Below are positions 16 to 4,053 of a DNA stretch of 4,074 nucleotides, piece by piece (the first letter of the stretch is position 1; the number at the start of each line of letters is the position of its first letter). Source of the DNA: a virus (lineage: Duplodnaviria; Heunggongvirae; Uroviricota; Caudoviricetes); IMG/VR virus record IMGVR_UViG_3300014356_000009; one strand, given 5' to 3'. A program made the position numbers and the translations under genes. The notes beneath the pieces were generated by a model. It had not been told where the DNA came from, did no database searches, and was given only the letters and a program-made list of their open reading frames with translations.

Positions 16-1392
16 TCATACGTCAGCCCCTTGTGCATATCGTCTGCCACGCGCAGCAGGCGCATTTGATGCTGTGCAAATCTGTCTGGCTTCATCCTGG
101 TCACATGCAACAAAGTGTCCGTTACAGAACCGCTGGTAAACCGTACCAAGCGAGCCAAAACGGTTTTTTGTCACAATGATTTCAGCAAATGGCGCGGCGC
201 TACTGTTCTCGTCATATACCGCTTCCCGATAGAGCATGATGATTGAGTCTGCGTCCTGTTCAATGCTTCCTGAATCACGCAAATCTGCGTTTGTCGGGCG
301 TTTGTTTGGTCGCTTCTCAACATCGCGCGAAAGCTGACTCAGGGAGATAACAGGCGTTTTCAGGTCTTTCGCCATCGCCTTCAGGCTTCCTGAGATATGA
401 GCAATTGCGAGGTCGTTGCGGTCTGCTTTCGGCTTCTCAATCAGGCCAAGATAATCCACCATGATGAGTGACAGGTTTGGATTTTCCTGTTTGTGCCGTT
501 CTGCGATTGAGCGTATTTCTTCGACCGATAACCGCGAGGCATCGACTACCCATACATCCAAATCTGCAAGCTGACTCATGCCGTTAGCAACACGCGCCCA
601 GCCTTCGTCATCCATCGATGCAGGATTTCGCAGTACGCTAACCGACATCCTCCCGGCGTTGGCAATGCTTCGCTCTGCAATCTGCAATGCGCTCATTTCC
701 ATTGAGAAAATCAATACTCCGCGCCGAACGTCAGAACCAGGAATAACGCGGCTTGCAACGCCTTCGGCAATCTTCAGCGCCAGTTCGGTTTTCCCCATAC
801 CAGGACGAGCAGCGATTATCACAAGGTCTTCCGCGTTCATCCCTCCGGTGATGGCGTCAAGTTCTTCGATTCCGGTCTTCATGGTATCTGACTCTTCTCC
901 GTTCCTCAGACGCCTGTCAAGCGTGTCAGTGTAGTCGGTGATGATTTCCCCTAACCGTACAGGTTTAACCTCGTCACGGGGCTTTCTGATGGCTGAAAGA
1001 CGCTTTACAAGCTCGTCCATCGCCTGACTCGATGTATCGATGGTTCCGCTCTGAATTGGTTCACGCATTTCATCCATGATTTCCAGCACCAGACGGCGGT
1101 GATAGTTATCCGCGACCATTCCGGCATATCCCTTCAGGTTTGCGGCGCTCGGGCAGTTTTTGCTGGTCATCAGGATTGACGTGAAATGCTCCTCTCCGCA
1201 CGCCTCGGCAACCATCAGCGCGTCGATTAGGTTTCTGTTTCTCGCCTGCTTGCGGATAACCTCGAAGGCTTTCCGGTAGAGCGGAATTGAAAACGCCTCC
1301 GGCTCCAACGTTGCCAGAACGTCGCTGGCAGTTGGCGTTAATCCACCAATCAGCAGGCCACCGATAACGCTCGCTTCGATATCCTGTCTCAT
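16..1392 (-). CDS. Replicative DNA helicase, DnaB family (phage-encoded, P22 gene 12-type)
   Basis: Complete 458-aa ORF. N-terminus [17 protein letters not shown] resembles the conserved DnaB N-terminal motif. Walker A P-loop is present ([13 protein letters not shown]). Start ATG (1390-1392) overlaps the stop of the upstream O-like gene as ATGA, with a GGGGGA Shine-Dalgarno 5 nt upstream. Stop TGA at 16-18. Confidence 0.9.
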
Positions 1393-2336
1393 GAAATCCC
1401 CCTGTCTGCAAACTTCCCTTCCCGAACTCCCGTTAACGAGTCTTCCCTCAGCAGGTAATCAAAATCTGCCGTCCAGCCCGTGTCGTTGTCTCCGAAGTAA
1501 AACGGCTTGGCCTGATGCACAAACGCCCTGACATACGCTCTGAAACCGTCCACGTTTGGCGTTTTCAGTTGCGGGATGATTTTCTTCAGGCGGCGTTTGC
1601 GTTTCTCGTTGACCGCAACAGCGTGTGGCAGTCTGTCACCGACTTCGATGTTGTAGGCGTTCAGGAAGGATTCGTAGTCGATTCGTTCTGCCTTTCGACG
1701 TTCAGGTTTAACCTGCCCATCGCCTCCCCCATTGGGGGGTAGGGGGGTATTATTTATATTCTTGTTAATACCTTCTTGTTCATGATGTGCGGTTGTTTGT
1801 GCGGCTTCATGTGCGCTTTCATGTGCGGCATGTGCGCTGAAAGCCGCGCCATTACTGGCTTCCTCATGTGCGGCATCATGTGCGGTTGTTTGTGCGGCAT
1901 CATGTGCGGGTGAATTGTCCATTTTTTGAGCATATTCATGGTAACTTGTGATGGTGATCACGCGACCTTTTTGCTTCTCTCCATCAATGGAGATCATCCC
2001 CTCTTTCACAAAAACCTGAAGCATCCGCTCAACCTGATCACGGCTTGCCGGCTTGCCATGCCTGTCGCATAACTGAAGACCTAAATCAGCTGCTGTCACA
2101 ACCAGTTGACCGGGTTGCAGATGCCATTCATGACCTTTGAAATTCGCTTTGTATGGCTTTCTGGCGGCATTCAGGAGAAGGTTTTCCCACAGGGTGCGAA
2201 GATAAACATCTTTCGCCCATGACTGTTTCAGAATGCTCCGGTACAACGGAATGTAACCAGTTTTCTGGTTCTCCATCCTGTTGCTCCTGCGCTCGTGTGC
2301 GGCGCTGAAATCGTAGATTTTTGCTGTATTGCTCAT
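1389..2336 (-). CDS. O: Replication initiation protein, lambda O-like (origin-binding replisome organiser)
   Basis: 315-aa ORF whose N-terminus [10 protein letters not shown] matches the lambda O start (MTNTAKI...) as I recall it. It has an N-terminal domain, a His/Ala-rich repetitive linker encoded by the iteron-like repeats, and a C-terminal domain. It sits immediately upstream of, and is translationally coupled to, the helicase gene. An AGGCAGG Shine-Dalgarno lies upstream of the ATG at 2334-2336. Confidence 0.8.
1724..1783. other. AT-rich tract and G/C inverted repeat flanking the iterons (candidate DNA-unwinding element of the origin)
   Basis: Positions 1748-1780 are about 82% A+T (tattatttatattcttgttaataccttcttgtt). 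Adjacent is CCCCC-ATT-GGGGGG (1726-1739) followed by TAGGGGGG. The order iterons, then AT-rich tract, then palindrome in the direction of O transcription mirrors lambda ori. Confidence 0.5.
1784..1912. repeat. Iteron-like direct repeats with 12-bp periodicity (putative phage origin of replication, inside the O-like gene)
   Basis: Nine copies of (C/T)(A/T)TGTGCG(G/C) start at 1784, 1796, 1808, 1820, 1829, 1865, 1877, 1889 and 1901 (+ strand). They form two clusters separated by a ~24-bp spacer (1841-1864). The 26-mer at 1780-1805 recurs at 1874-1899 with one mismatch. Confidence 0.7.
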
Positions 2337-2338
2337 AA

Positions 2339-2611
2339 CTACCTGCCTTGACGAAAGACCTTAAGAACATCGTTAAACTGACTTACGGATATGTCTTCTT
2401 TGAGCAGCTTTTCCAGAAATGCGTTTGGAATGAACGTATATCCCTCCTCTTTTGGTAGAGACGGGAGCAACGCCCTCGCCTCAGCCTTCAGAAGCTCAGT
2501 TCTGGCAACTTTCACAAAAGAGATTTGAGTTCTTTCATCAATGGAACGAAGGAAGCGCAAACGCTTAGCTTCTTTGTGTGTATCAGGTGGATTAAAGCCT
2601 TTGTTTCGCAT
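2339..2611 (-). CDS. Hypothetical small protein (about 91 aa), function unknown
   Basis: Open frame with ATG at 2609-2611 preceded by GAGG 8 nt upstream. Its stop TAG (2339-2341) lies 2 nt before the O-like start codon, suggesting translational coupling. The frame stays open for about 98 codons through a region with no other assigned gene. No family recognised by eye. Confidence 0.5.
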   Translation of the reverse strand: MRNKGFNPPDTHKEAKRLRFLRSIDERTQISFVKVARTELLKAEARALLPSLPKEEGYTFIPNAFLEKLLKEDISVSQFNDVLKVFRQGR

Positions 2612-2616
2612 ATAAT
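2611..2616 (+). promoter_or_regulatory. Candidate -10 hexamer (TATAAT) of a pO-like promoter for an antisense RNA
   Basis: Perfect TATAAT on the + strand at 2611-2616, about 45 nt upstream of an intrinsic terminator. The -35 region is poor (TGGATT at 2588-2593). Confidence 0.4.
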
Positions 2617-2622
2617 TACCTC

Positions 2623-2691
2623 GTTGGATGTTGTTAAAATTCCATTTGTATTTGATCAGAACGCTCGGTCTTGCACACCGGGCGTTTTTTC
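2623..2691 (+). ncRNA. OOP-like antisense RNA overlapping the 3' end of cII
   Basis: Predicted ~70-nt transcript from the TATAAT at 2611-2616 to the terminator at 2662-2690, antisense to the last ~19 codons of cII. This matches the arrangement of lambda OOP RNA (77 nt, antisense to the cII 3' end). Confidence 0.45.
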
Positions 2692-2933
2692 TTTGTGATT
2701 TCATCAAGCGCATACTTAAAAGCCCTGCTAATCGGACTGATGTCTGATGCCATTCCGAAAGCACACAAGACCGAAGCAATAAATCTCCAGTCCGTTCTGC
2801 TTATCTTCGATTCATGACAGCCAATCATCTTTGCCAGACCGCGCTGGGTAAGCGTTGACAGGTTGATGAGTAAATCTGTTTCTGCGCGATCAACGTCGCG
2901 CTGTGATAGTTTGCTGTAACTTGTTTGTTCCAT
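2634..2933 (-). CDS. cII: Transcriptional activator CII (lysogeny establishment)
   Basis: 99-aa ORF. C-terminus KKKRPVCKTERSDQIQMEF is nearly identical to the lambda CII C-terminus (KKRPAATERSEQIQMEF, from memory). A central HTH-like segment is present (ESKISRTDW versus lambda KSQISRW). It lies directly downstream of cro and the nutR-like site. Confidence 0.9.
   Translation of the reverse strand: MEQTSYSKLSQRDVDRAETDLLINLSTLTQRGLAKMIGCHESKISRTDWRFIASVLCAFGMASDISPISRAFKYALDEITKKKRPVCKTERSDQIQMEF
2662..2693 (+). terminator. Intrinsic terminator (hairpin plus T-run) on the + strand, inside the cII coding region
   Basis: Stem CGCTCGG (2662-2668) pairs with CCGGGCG (2678-2684): 7 bp including one G-U pair, with a 9-nt loop. 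It is followed by TTTTTTCTTTG (2685-2695). Confidence 0.65.
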
Positions 2934-3039: not shown

Positions 3040-3267
3040 TTATGCAGCCAGAAGGTTCTTTTTGCTTATTTCAAGCATTTCGCTTGCTTGATATTTGCCA
3101 CCAGAAATCTCTTCGATTTTTGATGCGTATTTAGTTTTCCCAAAAAACTCAGTCTTAGGGAGGAAGCCGTTTTTGAGCCACTTATAGACAGCCCTTTCGC
3201 TAACTCCACAAGCCTTCGCAACTTCAGGGATGCCGACACCTTTAATCGGCTCATCAAGATTTTGCAT
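3040..3267 (-). CDS. cro: Cro-like repressor (small HTH DNA-binding protein)
   Basis: 75-aa ORF divergent from cI. It is the first gene of the operon containing the nutR-like site and cII. HTH-like segment IPEVAKACGVSERAVYKWLKNG. SD AAGGA upstream of the ATG (3265-3267). Assignment is by position and HTH, not by similarity to lambda Cro. Confidence 0.8.
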   Translation of the reverse strand: MQNLDEPIKGVGIPEVAKACGVSERAVYKWLKNGFLPKTEFFGKTKYASKIEEISGGKYQASEMLEISKKNLLAA

Positions 3268-3345: not shown

Positions 3346-4053
3346 ATGGTTCAGAATGAAAAAGTGCGCAAAGAATTCGCCCAGCGGCTAGCGCAAGCCT
3401 GTAAAGAAGCTGGTCTTGATGAACATGGTAGGGGGATGGCCATAGCCCGTGCCCTTTCTCTTTCGTCCAAAGGCGTTAGCAAATGGTTTAATGCTGAGTC
3501 TTTACCGCGTCAGGAAAAAATGAATGCGCTTGCGAAATTTCTAAACGTTGATGTTGTTTGGCTTCAGCACGGCACTTCGTTAAATGGAGCGAATGATGAA
3601 GATACTCTTTCATTTGTTGGCAAATTAAAAAAAGGGTTAGTGCGCGTGGTTGGTGAGGCAATTCTTGGTGTTGATGGTGCCATCGAGATGACCGAAGAGC
3701 GCGATGGGTGGCTCAAAATTTATAGCGATGATCCAGATGCCTTTGGTCTTCGTGTGAAAGGAGACAGCATGTGGCCTAGAATAAAATCAGGAGAATATGT
3801 ACTCATTGAGCCTAACACCAAAGTATTCCCGGGTGATGAGGTGTTTGTCAGAACCGTTGAAGGACACAACATGATCAAAGTTCTTGGCTATGACAGAGAT
3901 GGAGAATACCAATTTACAAGCATCAACCAGGACCACAGGCCAATAACGTTACCTTATCATCAAGTAGCAAAGGTGGAGTATGTGGCTGGTATTCTGAAGC
4001 AATCTCGCCATCTGGATGACATCGAGGCAAGGGAGTGGCTGAAAAGTTCGTGA
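3346..4053 (+). CDS. cI: CI-type phage repressor with C-terminal S24 (LexA-like) autopeptidase domain
   Basis: 235-aa ORF divergent from cro. N-terminal HTH-type region. The C-terminal domain has the S24 Ser/Lys dyad context (GDSMWP, Ser141; NMIKVLG, Lys178). No Shine-Dalgarno precedes the ATG, consistent with a leaderless transcript. Confidence 0.9.
   Translation: MVQNEKVRKEFAQRLAQACKEAGLDEHGRGMAIARALSLSSKGVSKWFNAESLPRQEKMNALAKFLNVDVVWLQHGTSLNGANDEDTLSFVGKLKKGLVRVVGEAILGVDGAIEMTEERDGWLKIYSDDPDAFGLRVKGDSMWPRIKSGEYVLIEPNTKVFPGDEVFVRTVEGHNMIKVLGYDRDGEYQFTSINQDHRPITLPYHQVAKVEYVAGILKQSRHLDDIEAREWLKSS

Follow-up and report, generated by a model that had tools for sequence, protein, structure and literature searches.

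A probable replication origin of in-frame 12-nt direct repeats inside the O-like initiator gene of a P22-type lambdoid replication module

The window, by which we mean the whole 4,074-nt stretch of DNA that was analyzed, contains a P22 gene 18-like initiator gene and a gene for a DnaB-type helicase (Table 1), and the gene order around the initiator is cI-cro-cII-O-helicase. The initiator matches Pfam Phage_rep_O (PF04492) over residues 20-132 (E = 6.5e-15; 55.9 bits, against a cut-off of 28.7) and PHROG 345, "replication initiation O-like" (E = 3e-98), and is 98% identical to gene O of CUS-3. The helicase gene matches Pfam DnaB_C (E = 1e-78), the DnaB N-domain (E = 4e-13), and PHROG 19. Positions 1389-1763 share 95-96% DNA identity with HK97, ST104, and mEp213, whose N-domains are unrelated to that of the window; the corresponding P22 match to the C-terminal region is 67%. 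C-domains of the P22 gp18/HK97 gp54 type are always followed by a DnaB-type helicase gene, and the gp18/gp54-like C-domain and overlapping DnaB-family helicase gene found here are those of a P22 gene 18/gene 12-type module.

Table 1. Coordinates of genes, domains, and sequence features in the window
Feature	Position	Strand	Comment
Phage DnaB-type replicative helicase gene (P22 gene 12 type)	16..1392	-	Overlaps initiator stop codon
O-like (P22 gene 18-like) initiator gene	1389..2336	-	315 aa; contains the putative origin
Initiator C-terminal domain (P22 gp18 / HK97 gp54 type), presumed helicase-interaction	1389..1722	-	
Short inverted repeat CCTCCCCC-ATT-GGGGGGTAGG	1723..1743	.	Core 1726-1738; encodes PLPPNGGG
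Conserved junction and AT-rich tract, presumed DNA-unwinding element	1748..1787	-	Coding strand CATCATGAACAAGAAGGTA
Putative iteron block 2	1781..1828	-	Four 12-nt units adjoining AT tract
Block 2 cores	1822-1827, 1810-1815, 1798-1803, 1786-1791	-	
Inter-block spacer	1829..1861	-	33 nt; conserved motif and off-register ninth copy
Putative iteron block 1	1862..1909	-	Four head-to-tail 12-nt units, coding strand CCGCACA-NNNNN
Block 1 cores	1903-1908, 1891-1896, 1879-1884, 1867-1872	-	
Initiator N-terminal winged-helix domain, presumed iteron-binding	1917..2276	-	aa 21-140; predicted structure
Codon for Asp100 (residue 80 from internal MENQK)	2037..2039	-	Predicted recognition-helix N-terminus

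An AlphaFold model of the initiator, built on an alignment of database hits, predicts an N-domain at residues ~9-119 (pLDDT 85-90) with the topology H-strands-H-H-wing. Its best Foldseek matches are winged-helix DNA binders of the MarR, RbkR, TubR, and CodY types, at modest similarity (E about 1e-2); a sequence-profile search of the PDB with the N-domain returned no significant relative, the weak match being an alignment to the Fur recognition helix (E = 0.045). Positions 1723-1909 sit between this modelled winged-helix domain and the HK97/P22-type C-domain, within the ORF 1389-2336(-), and the model gives the linker that the repeats encode a pLDDT below 50, a prediction of disorder.

The first-pass annotation had described nine copies of a core motif in strict 12-bp phase. 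Nine TGTGCG cores do exist on the plus strand (starting at 1786, 1798, 1810, 1822, 1831, 1867, 1879, 1891, and 1903), but strict phase holds for only eight of them: these are same-strand units of the TGTGCGG type within 1781-1909, which form two blocks of four and recur exactly every 12 nt inside each block. TRF recovered period-12 arrays at 1798-1829 and 1864-1909, and when the window was randomised 2000 times with a first-order Markov model, 130-bp spans contained at most 3 cores, as compared with 9 observed. The two blocks are out of mutual 12-nt phase, with 45 nt (3 x 12 + 9) from the last unit of block 1 to the first unit of block 2. The ninth copy (1829-1837) lies inside the spacer, out of register at 9 nt from the neighboring core. 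It is polymorphic, carried by a minority of close loci (23 of 120) and missing in CUS-3 and most close relatives. An isolated tenth core at 2296 is no more than chance predicts (about 2.7 cores per window). Per-base conservation also marks a spacer motif, coding strand CCAGTAATGGCGCGGC, at 1843-1858. All of the cores are in frame with the ORF 1389-2336(-), and its translation through them reproduces the repetitive His/Ala-rich linker peptide given at first pass. An inverted-repeat search of 1650-2000 found none; the units are 12-nt direct repeats without dyad symmetry, and in this differ from lambda-type ITNs (~18-19 bp, internal dyad, 20-24 bp spacing).

Several other features suggested by the array were rejected. 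A terminator-like match at 1799-1816 is simply two neighboring repeat units. A Cys-rich plus-strand ORF (1776-1913, 45 aa) and an out-of-frame minus-strand ORF (1754-1939, 61 aa) are unsupported by-products of the repeat; the initiator's in-frame reading through the repeats is kept in all relatives. An Rfam scan of the window returned no match, and a promoter scan found no promoter-like site inside the element. A plasmid Rep/iteron or DnaA-dependent origin was likewise discarded: there is no Rep-family match, the units are 12 nt rather than 17-22 bp, and the DnaA box TTWTNCACA is absent throughout the window.

A comparison of repeat number across related prophages, proposed in the first-pass annotation, was carried out on 192 distinct relatives drawn from about 280 loci. 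These have 3+3 or 4+4 units with a 12-nt period, followed by a conserved CATCATGAACAAGAAGGTA and the start of the AT tract, and the 45-nt inter-block distance is constant in nearly all of them. Two relatives (L193 and L243) have one block only, so that two blocks may not be essential or those prophages may be defective. Strong units alternate with weak ones in the Yersinia phage and several others (CGCACAT/CGCACTT), with H units set against Q or L units. In L009 and L011, for example, both blocks of one genome list their unit variants in the same order. Concerted evolution, through slippage or conversion, can make tandem copies alike in the absence of selection.

What counts as one binding unit bears on how many iterons are present. 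The initiator may recognize an adjacent pair of 12-mers (~24 bp, one dimer) or an entire block, in which case there would really be four or two iterons, as in lambda. Lambda O binds 18-bp sites as a dimer at a spacing of 20-24 bp, and both the alternation of strong and weak units and the shared variant order in L009 and L011 are consistent with paired recognition; however, three-unit blocks are about as frequent as four-unit blocks (63 versus 68 distinct sequences), which is a misfit to strict pairing, and the 12-nt units lack dyad symmetry. We consider a paired or block-sized unit possible but doubtful.

The lambda-like layout read at first pass inside the O-like gene is supported by these data: the repeats are followed along O transcription by the AT-rich tract and then by a short inverted repeat, a possible part of the origin. 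The AT tract lies directly downstream of the repeats; its AT content had been put at 82%, and the tract is real but measures 80% at 1749-1783, the most AT-rich 35-mer in the window. Duplex stability is also lowest here: the 30-mer at 1748-1777 has a dG of -29.5 kcal/mol, whereas 30-mers across the window average -40.7 +/- 3.2 kcal/mol. The junction CATCATGAACAAGAAGGTA is almost invariant at all three codon positions across the relatives.

These features bear on whether the array is bound by the initiator mainly for regulation or titration (autoregulation, copy control, or handcuffing of the blocks), with unwinding starting elsewhere. Two equal blocks with a conserved spacer do recall split sites that form loops or rings, such as TubR centromeres (PMC6009700), and plasmid-borne lambda iterons can inhibit lambda replication in trans (PMC3349717). 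However, the array abuts the window's least stable DNA and a nearly invariant junction, the 4-kb replication region contains no second repeat array and no comparable AT tract, and in lambda the iterons closest to the AT tract suffice for unwinding (PMC7466680). A mainly regulatory role is, in our judgment, improbable.

The inverted repeat CCCCC-ATT-GGGGG(G) described at first pass was found at 1726-1738/9, adjoined by G-runs at 1734-1749. Its arms are only 5-7 bp, and its interpretation as a strong hairpin was rejected, with single-strand folding no better than shuffles (z -0.6 to -0.9). It is conserved in 61 of 63 relatives with a DnaB-partnered C-module, and in HK97 and P22 as well, and is missing from all 118 of the 118 lambda-P-partnered relatives, some of which have a version of lambda's own 28-bp palindrome at the same position. 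Judged by this sequence distribution, the inverted repeat belongs to the C-terminal/helicase-partner module and not to the iteron module. A function within the origin, for example as its right boundary, is possible if weakly supported, and a coding requirement for PPNGG could also explain the repeat.

The array itself follows the N-domain. It is always inherited with this domain across three C-terminal classes, whose partners are either lambda P (PF06992; E = 6e-54 and 1.5e-64) or DnaB. The switch in homology between HK97-type and Klebsiella/Yersinia-type matches falls at 1753-1763, inside the AT tract, and marks the mosaic breakpoint. Klebsiella phage 2 LV-2017 and similar relatives combine a window-type N-domain, array, and AT start with a lambda-type O C-terminus (51% identity, E = 6e-48), and also carry the right ori arm of lambda, TTCGTCnGAGAATTCTGGCGAATCC. 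For this comparison, ITN1-4 were taken from the lambda sequence itself; the joining of the array to a lambda O C-terminus and right ori arm indicates that in these chimeras the array replaces ITN1-4.

Within the N-domain, one residue covaries with the core. Residue 80 is D in 110 distinct sequences with CGCACA and H in 80 with CG(C/A)GCA, so that core base 4 (A or G) follows residue 80 in all 190 of the 190 distinct sequences that have D or H. This column ranks first (normalised MI 1.0), ahead of columns 98 and 62. The model places residue 80 at the beginning of the recognition helix (79-91), residue 98 in the wing, and residue 62 at the beginning of HTH helix 2. Residue 62 had appeared as a second perfectly covarying column among the first 17 sequences, but fails in the larger set. 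Fitch parsimony on an N-domain tree (NJ, about 108 residues) recovered 6 concordant changes of residue 80 and core base; because the sequences are related and the repeats may have been homogenised, the covariation rests on roughly four to six events. A testable hypothesis is that Asp100 reads the A of CGCACA, and that His reads the G of CGCGCA. In one relative (L288), the core is CGATRAACCAT and the recognition segment KSPQAV, on the same 12-nt plan; it has no His repeats, and the 12-nt periodicity, two blocks, spacer, and CCAGTAATGGCGCGGC motif are all kept.

Codon-level comparison indicates constraint on the DNA. Third-codon-position identity is 0.70 in the repeat/AT region as compared with 0.49 in the folded domain (Mann-Whitney p = 1.2e-6), and 0.84 versus 0.48 in columns with invariant amino acids (p = 3e-5), whereas for amino-acid identity the order is reversed, with 0.60 in the repeat region and 0.74 in the folded domain. 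The wobble C preceding each core is fixed while the encoded residue varies (P/A/T/S/G). Substitutions within the core are often non-synonymous (H/Q, A/E) but retain the DNA pattern, and CAT has changed to CAA far more often than to its synonym CAC (T 94, A 16, and C 3 at position +6).

It is against these data that the repeats must be weighed as a mere low-complexity, disordered linker generated by replication slippage, with no DNA function and an origin elsewhere. Predicted disorder of the linker, a period divisible by three that keeps the frame strictly, and copy changes by entire units (3+3 versus 4+4) would all be expected of such a linker. It does not readily accommodate wobble conservation above that of the folded domain at a lower amino-acid conservation, frequent non-synonymous core changes under a preserved DNA pattern, persistence of periodicity, blocks, and spacer in L288 without His, covariation of a core base with a DNA-recognition residue, or occupation of the lambda iteron position by the array in chimeric relatives, and we judge it very improbable. 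Selection of the Ala/His-rich linker as a metal-binding or interaction segment, with the DNA repetition as a by-product, draws on a His every four residues and on HHEQEG being invariant in nearly all relatives, but is extremely improbable given the common H/Q and A/E exchanges, the excess of CAT to CAA over CAT to CAC, the lack of His repeats in L288, and the invariance of the HHEQEG codons at synonymous sites too.

On these data, the replication origin of a lambdoid replication module of the P22 type very probably lies at 1723-1909, in the part of the module's own initiator gene that encodes the linker. In the mechanism we propose, the N-terminal winged-helix domain would bind the 12-nt head-to-tail units (4+4 here, 3+3 in many relatives), with the start of the recognition helix reading the CCGCACA core. 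A nucleoprotein complex analogous to the lambda O-some would form in this way and destabilise the neighboring AT-rich tract at 1748-1783, and the initiator C-domain would recruit the phage's own DnaB-type helicase (16-1392), much as lambda O acts with P-DnaB. Physical binding, unwinding, helicase recruitment, and origin firing are steps that we infer. The DNA of this stretch is also translated, into the Ala/His-rich linker of predicted disorder between the two protein domains, so that its sequence is under a double constraint.

The lambda binding mode is not simply transferable to 12-nt units that lack a lambda-type dyad. One speculative and rather unlikely arrangement, different from the lambda O-some, is that winged-helix protomers polymerise along each block, one per 12 bp, and under-twist the DNA to ~12 bp per turn; the blocks would pair across the spacer, which a host factor may bind, and unwinding would be delivered to the junction of CATCATGAACAAGAAGGTA and the AT tract. 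If this polymer arrangement were true, the D/H-A/G correspondence would be a one-residue, one-base code setting origin specificity, and could lead to replication incompatibility between co-resident prophages.

The window is ~98% identical to many Stx2a-converting phages, which carry the element, and prophages with it occur in 272-293 of 5,426 complete E. coli genomes (about 5%), where the locus is labelled merely "replication protein." As toxin output of Stx prophages depends on replication after induction, locating the candidate origin and its specificity determinant should aid experiments on that replication. The element also gives a clean example, provided by nature, of one DNA sequence under two constraints, as protein linker and as putative protein-binding array, and assignment of lambdoid origins by homology to lambda iterons misses this class. 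Searchable literature yielded no description of the 12-base repeat type of the putative origin, no experiments on it, and nothing on CUS-3 iterons; matches to the core sequences were to unrelated papers only.

Lambdoid origins lie in the middle of gene O and are made of iterons and an AT tract (PMC7466680, PMC3349717). The lambda ori likewise sits mid-gene, between the DNA-binding N-domain and partner-binding C-domain of a Phage_rep_O initiator whose N-terminal 162 aa bind ori (PMC2629481), and its repeats and AT-rich tract come in the same order as in the window, with an inverted repeat next, to which the short CCCCC-ATT-GGGGG repeat is a possible counterpart (PMC3349717, PMC7466680). However, lambda has four 18-bp dyad units, spaced by 20, 24, and 23 bp and out of codon register, whereas the eight units of the window are 12-nt direct repeats in codon register, lack a dyad, and form two blocks of equal size with a conserved 33-nt spacer between them. 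The two N-domains have no significant pairwise similarity (BLASTP E = 0.09), and the partner is a phage DnaB-type helicase in the window and P in lambda.

P22 gene 18/12 and HK97 gp54/gp55 share with the window the DnaB-type helicase partner, the AT tract, and PLPPNGGG with CCCCC-N3/4-GGGGG, and P22 gp18 is clearly homologous to the C-terminal half of the window initiator. Their N-domains and repeats are unrelated to those of the window; they have about four longer repeats, encoding TFTRSVK-LTFTKSVK and TLAKTANK-TLAKSAN. Gene 18 of P22 and of phage L each contain their own repeats, described for the P22 type as "four ~20 bp repeats" (PMC8022706). Short-unit iterons within O/gene 18-type genes are already published for phage L, in which gene 18 has six imprecise 11-bp repeats that were proposed as an origin from sequence alone (PMC8022706). 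Phage L also has a short direct-repeat array within the O/gene 18-type initiator gene of a P22-like phage; by its published description, the unit is TGTCCAACGGA, the period is 11 as compared with 12 here, and no two-block organisation is reported (PMC8022706). The Eru2 type of Stx2a phages pairs an O-like Phage_rep_O protein, Eru2A, with the 458-aa DnaB-domain protein Eru2B (Llarena et al. 2021; PMC8044961). Eru2A has 273 aa (an HK97-type size) and a different N-terminal module from the 315-aa window initiator, and that paper leaves origin and repeats undescribed (PMC8044961).

TubR-tubC type III plasmid centromeres are comparable by analogy only, in that a small winged-helix protein binds split blocks of direct repeats (PMC6009700); they serve segregation and promoter repression from an intergenic site and have no sequence homology to the window. 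TubR structures are among the Foldseek matches to the window N-domain. The units of pBtoxis tubC are 12 bp. The window element is very probably an additional case of the already known lambdoid class in which the ori lies within O.

Conservation among relatives, constraint at the DNA level, covariation with the initiator and positional equivalence to the lambda origin together indicate that the first-pass annotation, which read a lambda-like origin layout within the O-like gene, was essentially right; we consider it very probable that the element is an origin bound by its own initiator. The + strand carries nine TGTGCG cores between 1786 and 1908 and the opposite strand carries none; 2,000 first-order randomisations of the window yielded at most three per 130-bp span. 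On the coding strand the core reads xxC-GCA-CAw. Eight cores fall into two blocks of four with a strict 12-nt period (period-12 arrays were also detected by TRF), and 45 nt separate the last unit of block 1 from the first unit of block 2. Nine copies had originally been placed in 12-bp phase; the ninth is off register, lying inside the inter-block spacer 9 nt from the neighboring core. The AT tract following the repeats is 80% AT rather than 82%, higher than any other 35-mer of the window; the window's least stable 30-mer (−29.5 vs. −40.7 ± 3.2 kcal/mol) is listed with it in the table, as is the reported CCCCC-ATT-GGGGG inverted repeat. Beyond the ninth copy and small numerical details, the original description is correct. 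No DnaA box was found anywhere in the window. A tenth, isolated core (coding GCC-GCA-CAC, "AAH") lies upstream of an internal MENQK, in the extended N-terminal part of the O-like ORF, and is probably not meaningful because about 2.7 TGTGCG are expected per window by chance; an autoregulatory site is conceivable.

Coordinates of genes and sequence features in the window, a lambdoid immunity and replication region in reverse orientation
Feature	Position	Strand	Match or remark
cI	3346-4053	+	Peptidase_S24 + HTH
cro	3040-3267	-	
cII	2634-2933	-	Phage_CII, E 1e-33
Terminator-like hairpin and T-run AGAACGCTCGGTCTTGCACACCGGGCGTTTTTT	2658-2695	+	antisense to cII 3' end
Small conserved ORF, 91 aa, between cII and initiator gene	2339-2614	-	PHROG 2519 (unknown function), E 2e-57
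O-like initiator	1389-2336	-	Phage_rep_O, E 6.5e-15
DnaB-type helicase gene	16-1392	-	DnaB_C, E 1e-78; overlaps initiator gene
Isolated tenth core CGTGTGCGG	2294-2302	+	
First ~15 codons past MENQK	2232-2276		
Codon of residue 80 (Asp100)	2037-2039		
Block 1	1862-1909		four 12-nt units
Spacer motif CCAGTAATGGCGCGGC	1843-1858	coding	
Ninth core	1829-1837		
Block 2	1781-1828		four 12-nt units
Junction element CATCATGAACAAGAAGGTA	1768-1787	coding	between last unit and AT tract
AT tract	1749-1783		
Lowest-stability 30-mer	1748-1777		
Inverted repeat	1726-1738		

Loci with a matching initiator N-terminal domain (N-domain) were collected from one genome scan, four viral-contig scans and annotated phages. 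The ~280 loci amounted to 194 distinct sequences; 192 could be anchored and were analyzed. They reach down to 45% N-domain identity and were drawn from Escherichia, Salmonella, Klebsiella, Yersinia, Brenneria, Sodalis, Buttiauxella, Cedecea, and others. Nearly all share a common layout, in which block 1 has three or four 12-nt units, block 2 follows at a fixed distance of 45 nt with as many units, and CATCATGAACAAGAAGGTA runs into an A/T-rich stretch. Comparing repeat number, as proposed in the first-pass annotation, gave recurrent arrangements: in a first tabulation of 168 sequences, 63 were 3+3 and 68 were 4+4, 12 more carried an extra copy, and the rest were mostly the same patterns with one degenerate unit. 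All 63 distinct close relatives (≥97% N-domain identity) keep the 4+4 array. The ninth copy is a minority state (23/120 loci), most loci having FSVH in place of FSAH. Two relatives, L193 and L243 (PAHxAALKPAHHEQEG; viral contigs IMGVR_UViG_2724679369_000003 and 2706794596_000006), have a single block; either an origin can function with one block or replication is defective in these prophages. CATCATGAACAAGAAGGTA is the most conserved stretch of the element, with synonymous sites invariant across relatives, and a related string, AACAAGAAGGTAGTTAAC, is present in duplicate in the most diverged relative, L288. The spacer motif is conserved at all codon positions and is retained nearly unchanged (CCCAGCAATGGCGCGGCTTTGAAG) in L288 despite 45% N-domain identity and different repeat cores. 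As it does not covary with initiator specificity, it might serve a constant (host?) factor or be a structural element.

In this region it is the DNA, more than the peptide, that is constrained. When 17 diverged sequences were aligned by codon, pairwise third-position identity averaged 0.70 in the repeat/AT region vs. 0.49 in the folded domain (Mann–Whitney p 1.2e-6), while amino acid identity was reversed (0.60 vs. 0.74); at amino acid-invariant columns, third-position identity was 0.84 vs. 0.48 (p 3e-5). Each core is preceded by a codon whose wobble C is fixed, though the residue encoded varies (P, A, T, S, G). Across 113 units, position +6 carries T 94 times, A 16 times and C 3 times; the non-synonymous change from H to Q therefore outnumbers the silent change from CAT to CAC. 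A-to-E exchanges (GCG to GAG) are common in one dialect of the core. L288 lacks the His repeats, yet has two blocks of 12-nt units with the core CGATRAACCAT. The encoded linker is predicted to be disordered (pLDDT <50, residues 120–170 of the modeled fragment). The proposal that the same DNA doubles as linker code is supported. Patterns of this kind are expected where a DNA array bound by a protein is embedded in a linker that tolerates change, and they run opposite to ordinary coding constraint. Elsewhere in the gene, the first ~15 codons past MENQK show third-position identity of 0.74–0.80 among relatives, vs. ~0.45 over the remaining domain. Many relatives begin the gene at MENQK, 20 codons downstream of the window ORF's start. 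An internal or alternative start is suggested, or some other overlapping signal.

The repeats also covary with the protein. Cores come in two dialects, CGCACA, which is that of the window, and CG(C/A)GCA. Each genome keeps to one dialect throughout its six to eight units, apart from three arrays in which one unit belongs to the other. Among sequences with D or H at residue 80, counted from MENQK, the first dialect goes with D in 110/110 and the second with H in 80/80; the two remaining sequences of the 192 are one R with CGCACA and L288, which has Q there and another core. With the two covarying columns left out, a neighbor-joining tree of 92 distinct N-domains gave, by Fitch parsimony, six changes for each character, always concordant; this is subject to the caveats of relatedness among the sequences, a short tree, and possible homogenization of tandem repeats by conversion. 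Among 118 N-domain columns, normalized mutual information ranked residue 80 first (1.0), followed by 98 (0.985) and 62 (0.969). An AlphaFold model from 22 database homologs has a confident winged-helix fold (pLDDT 85–90 over residues ~9–119) with a helix-turn-helix of helices 62–68 and 79–91 and a wing of strands 95–100 and 104–109; these limits place residue 62 at the start of HTH helix 2, residue 80 at the start of the recognition helix, and residue 98 in the wing. No solved sequence homolog of the N-domain was found, and Foldseek matches, though modest (E ~1e-2), were all winged-helix DNA binders (MarR family, RbkR with DNA, TubR, CodY). Such covariation is the nearest computational stand-in for a binding experiment, and it yields a specific prediction.

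The N-domain and array behave as a module. The initiator C-terminal half (1389–1763) is 95–96% identical to HK97, ST104, mEp213, and others, phages that share neither the N-domain nor the repeats of the window; 1753–2328 (AT-tract start, repeats, and N-domain) matches Klebsiella and Yersinia phages at 75–79%, and these have different C-terminal halves and partner genes. In the larger set, the module is linked to three full-length C-terminal classes: one with a lambda P-family partner (118 distinct sequences; PF06992, E 6e-54), the window type with a DnaB-type helicase (63), and a third with a P-family partner (9; E 1.5e-64). Two further sequences are truncated, apparently frameshifted versions of the window type. 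Each C-terminal class includes both dialects.

The inverted repeat follows the C-terminal module. CCCCC-N3/4-GGGGG lies past the AT tract in 61/63 DnaB-partnered relatives, and in HK97 and P22 despite ~67% DNA identity there, and is absent in 118/118 lambda P-partnered relatives. At the equivalent place lambda has a 28-bp palindrome, GTCAGAGAATTCTGGCGAATCCTCTGAC, versions of which occur in some relatives of the lambda P-partnered class. To the right of the AT tract, then, an inverted repeat recurs and is inherited with the C-terminal/partner module, which fits the layout originally proposed. The arms in the window are only 5–7 bp, hairpin stability is no better than that of shuffled sequence, and conservation could be explained by the encoded PPNGG peptide; for these reasons we regard the palindrome only as a possible part of the origin. 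In the two frameshifted sequences the shift falls just past the AT tract, within the C/G runs at the palindrome, and the proteins end early; these homopolymer runs may be frameshift-prone or a sequencing-error hotspot.

Dozens of Stx2a-converting phages and the CUS-3 O/P region are ~98% identical to the window. A 231-bp probe spanning the element matched 293/5,426 complete E. coli genomes (272 with ≥80% of the probe length covered), where the locus is labeled only "replication protein". Database N-domain homologs (P0001–P0068) are mostly labeled "replication protein, partial" and mostly stop at 150–208 aa, in or just past the repeat/AT region, probably because short-read assemblies break at a mosaic or repeated segment. 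The 91-aa ORF has no Pfam family, nor does the CUS-3 annotation show a counterpart at the same place. The terminator-like hairpin at the cII 3′ end closely resembles the lambda oop terminator (sequence from a primer in PMC3349717, AAGAACGCTCGGTTGCCGC...) and probably ends an oop-like antisense RNA, although an Rfam scan of the window returned no match.

That an origin can lie inside its initiator gene is textbook knowledge: lambdoid origins lie inside O and comprise iterons and an AT tract, with repeats that differ by O/gene 18 type (four of ~20 bp in lambda and in P22; six imprecise 11-bp repeats in phage L; PMC8022706, PMC7466680). Work on Stx phages describes O-like plus DnaB helicase units (Eru2, Eru3) without mention of an origin or repeats (PMC8044961). 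No published description of the 12-nt repeat type was found in the searchable literature, outside which much older work lies. Three findings usefully add to this: a conserved arrangement of 12-nt units in two blocks, a junction element that is invariant, and covariation of one residue with one base. All three bear on an element that is common in Stx2a phages, and experiments would be easy.

A link to lambda is seen in Klebsiella phage 2 LV-2017, of the lambda P-partnered class, whose initiator C-terminus is 51% identical to lambda O (E 6e-48) and which carries lambda's own right ori arm, TTCGTCnGAGAATTCTGGCGAATCC, directly past the AT tract. The 12-nt array in such phages therefore holds the exact position of ITN1–4 in the experimentally defined ori-lambda (PMC3349717, PMC7466680). 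This position agrees with the established division of labor in lambda O, whose N-terminal 162 residues bind the origin (PMC2629481). The difference in period from the longer lambda iterons, recognized at first pass, extends to their form: lambda iterons span 18 bp, have internal dyad symmetry and follow one another at 20, 24, and 23 bp in differing reading-frame phases, whereas the window units are 12-nt direct repeats without dyad symmetry, strictly in frame, in two equal blocks flanking a conserved 33-nt spacer. This arrangement suggests that protomers bind head-to-tail, not as one dimer per palindromic site; a 24-bp binding unit is possible, since strong and weak units alternate in some genomes.
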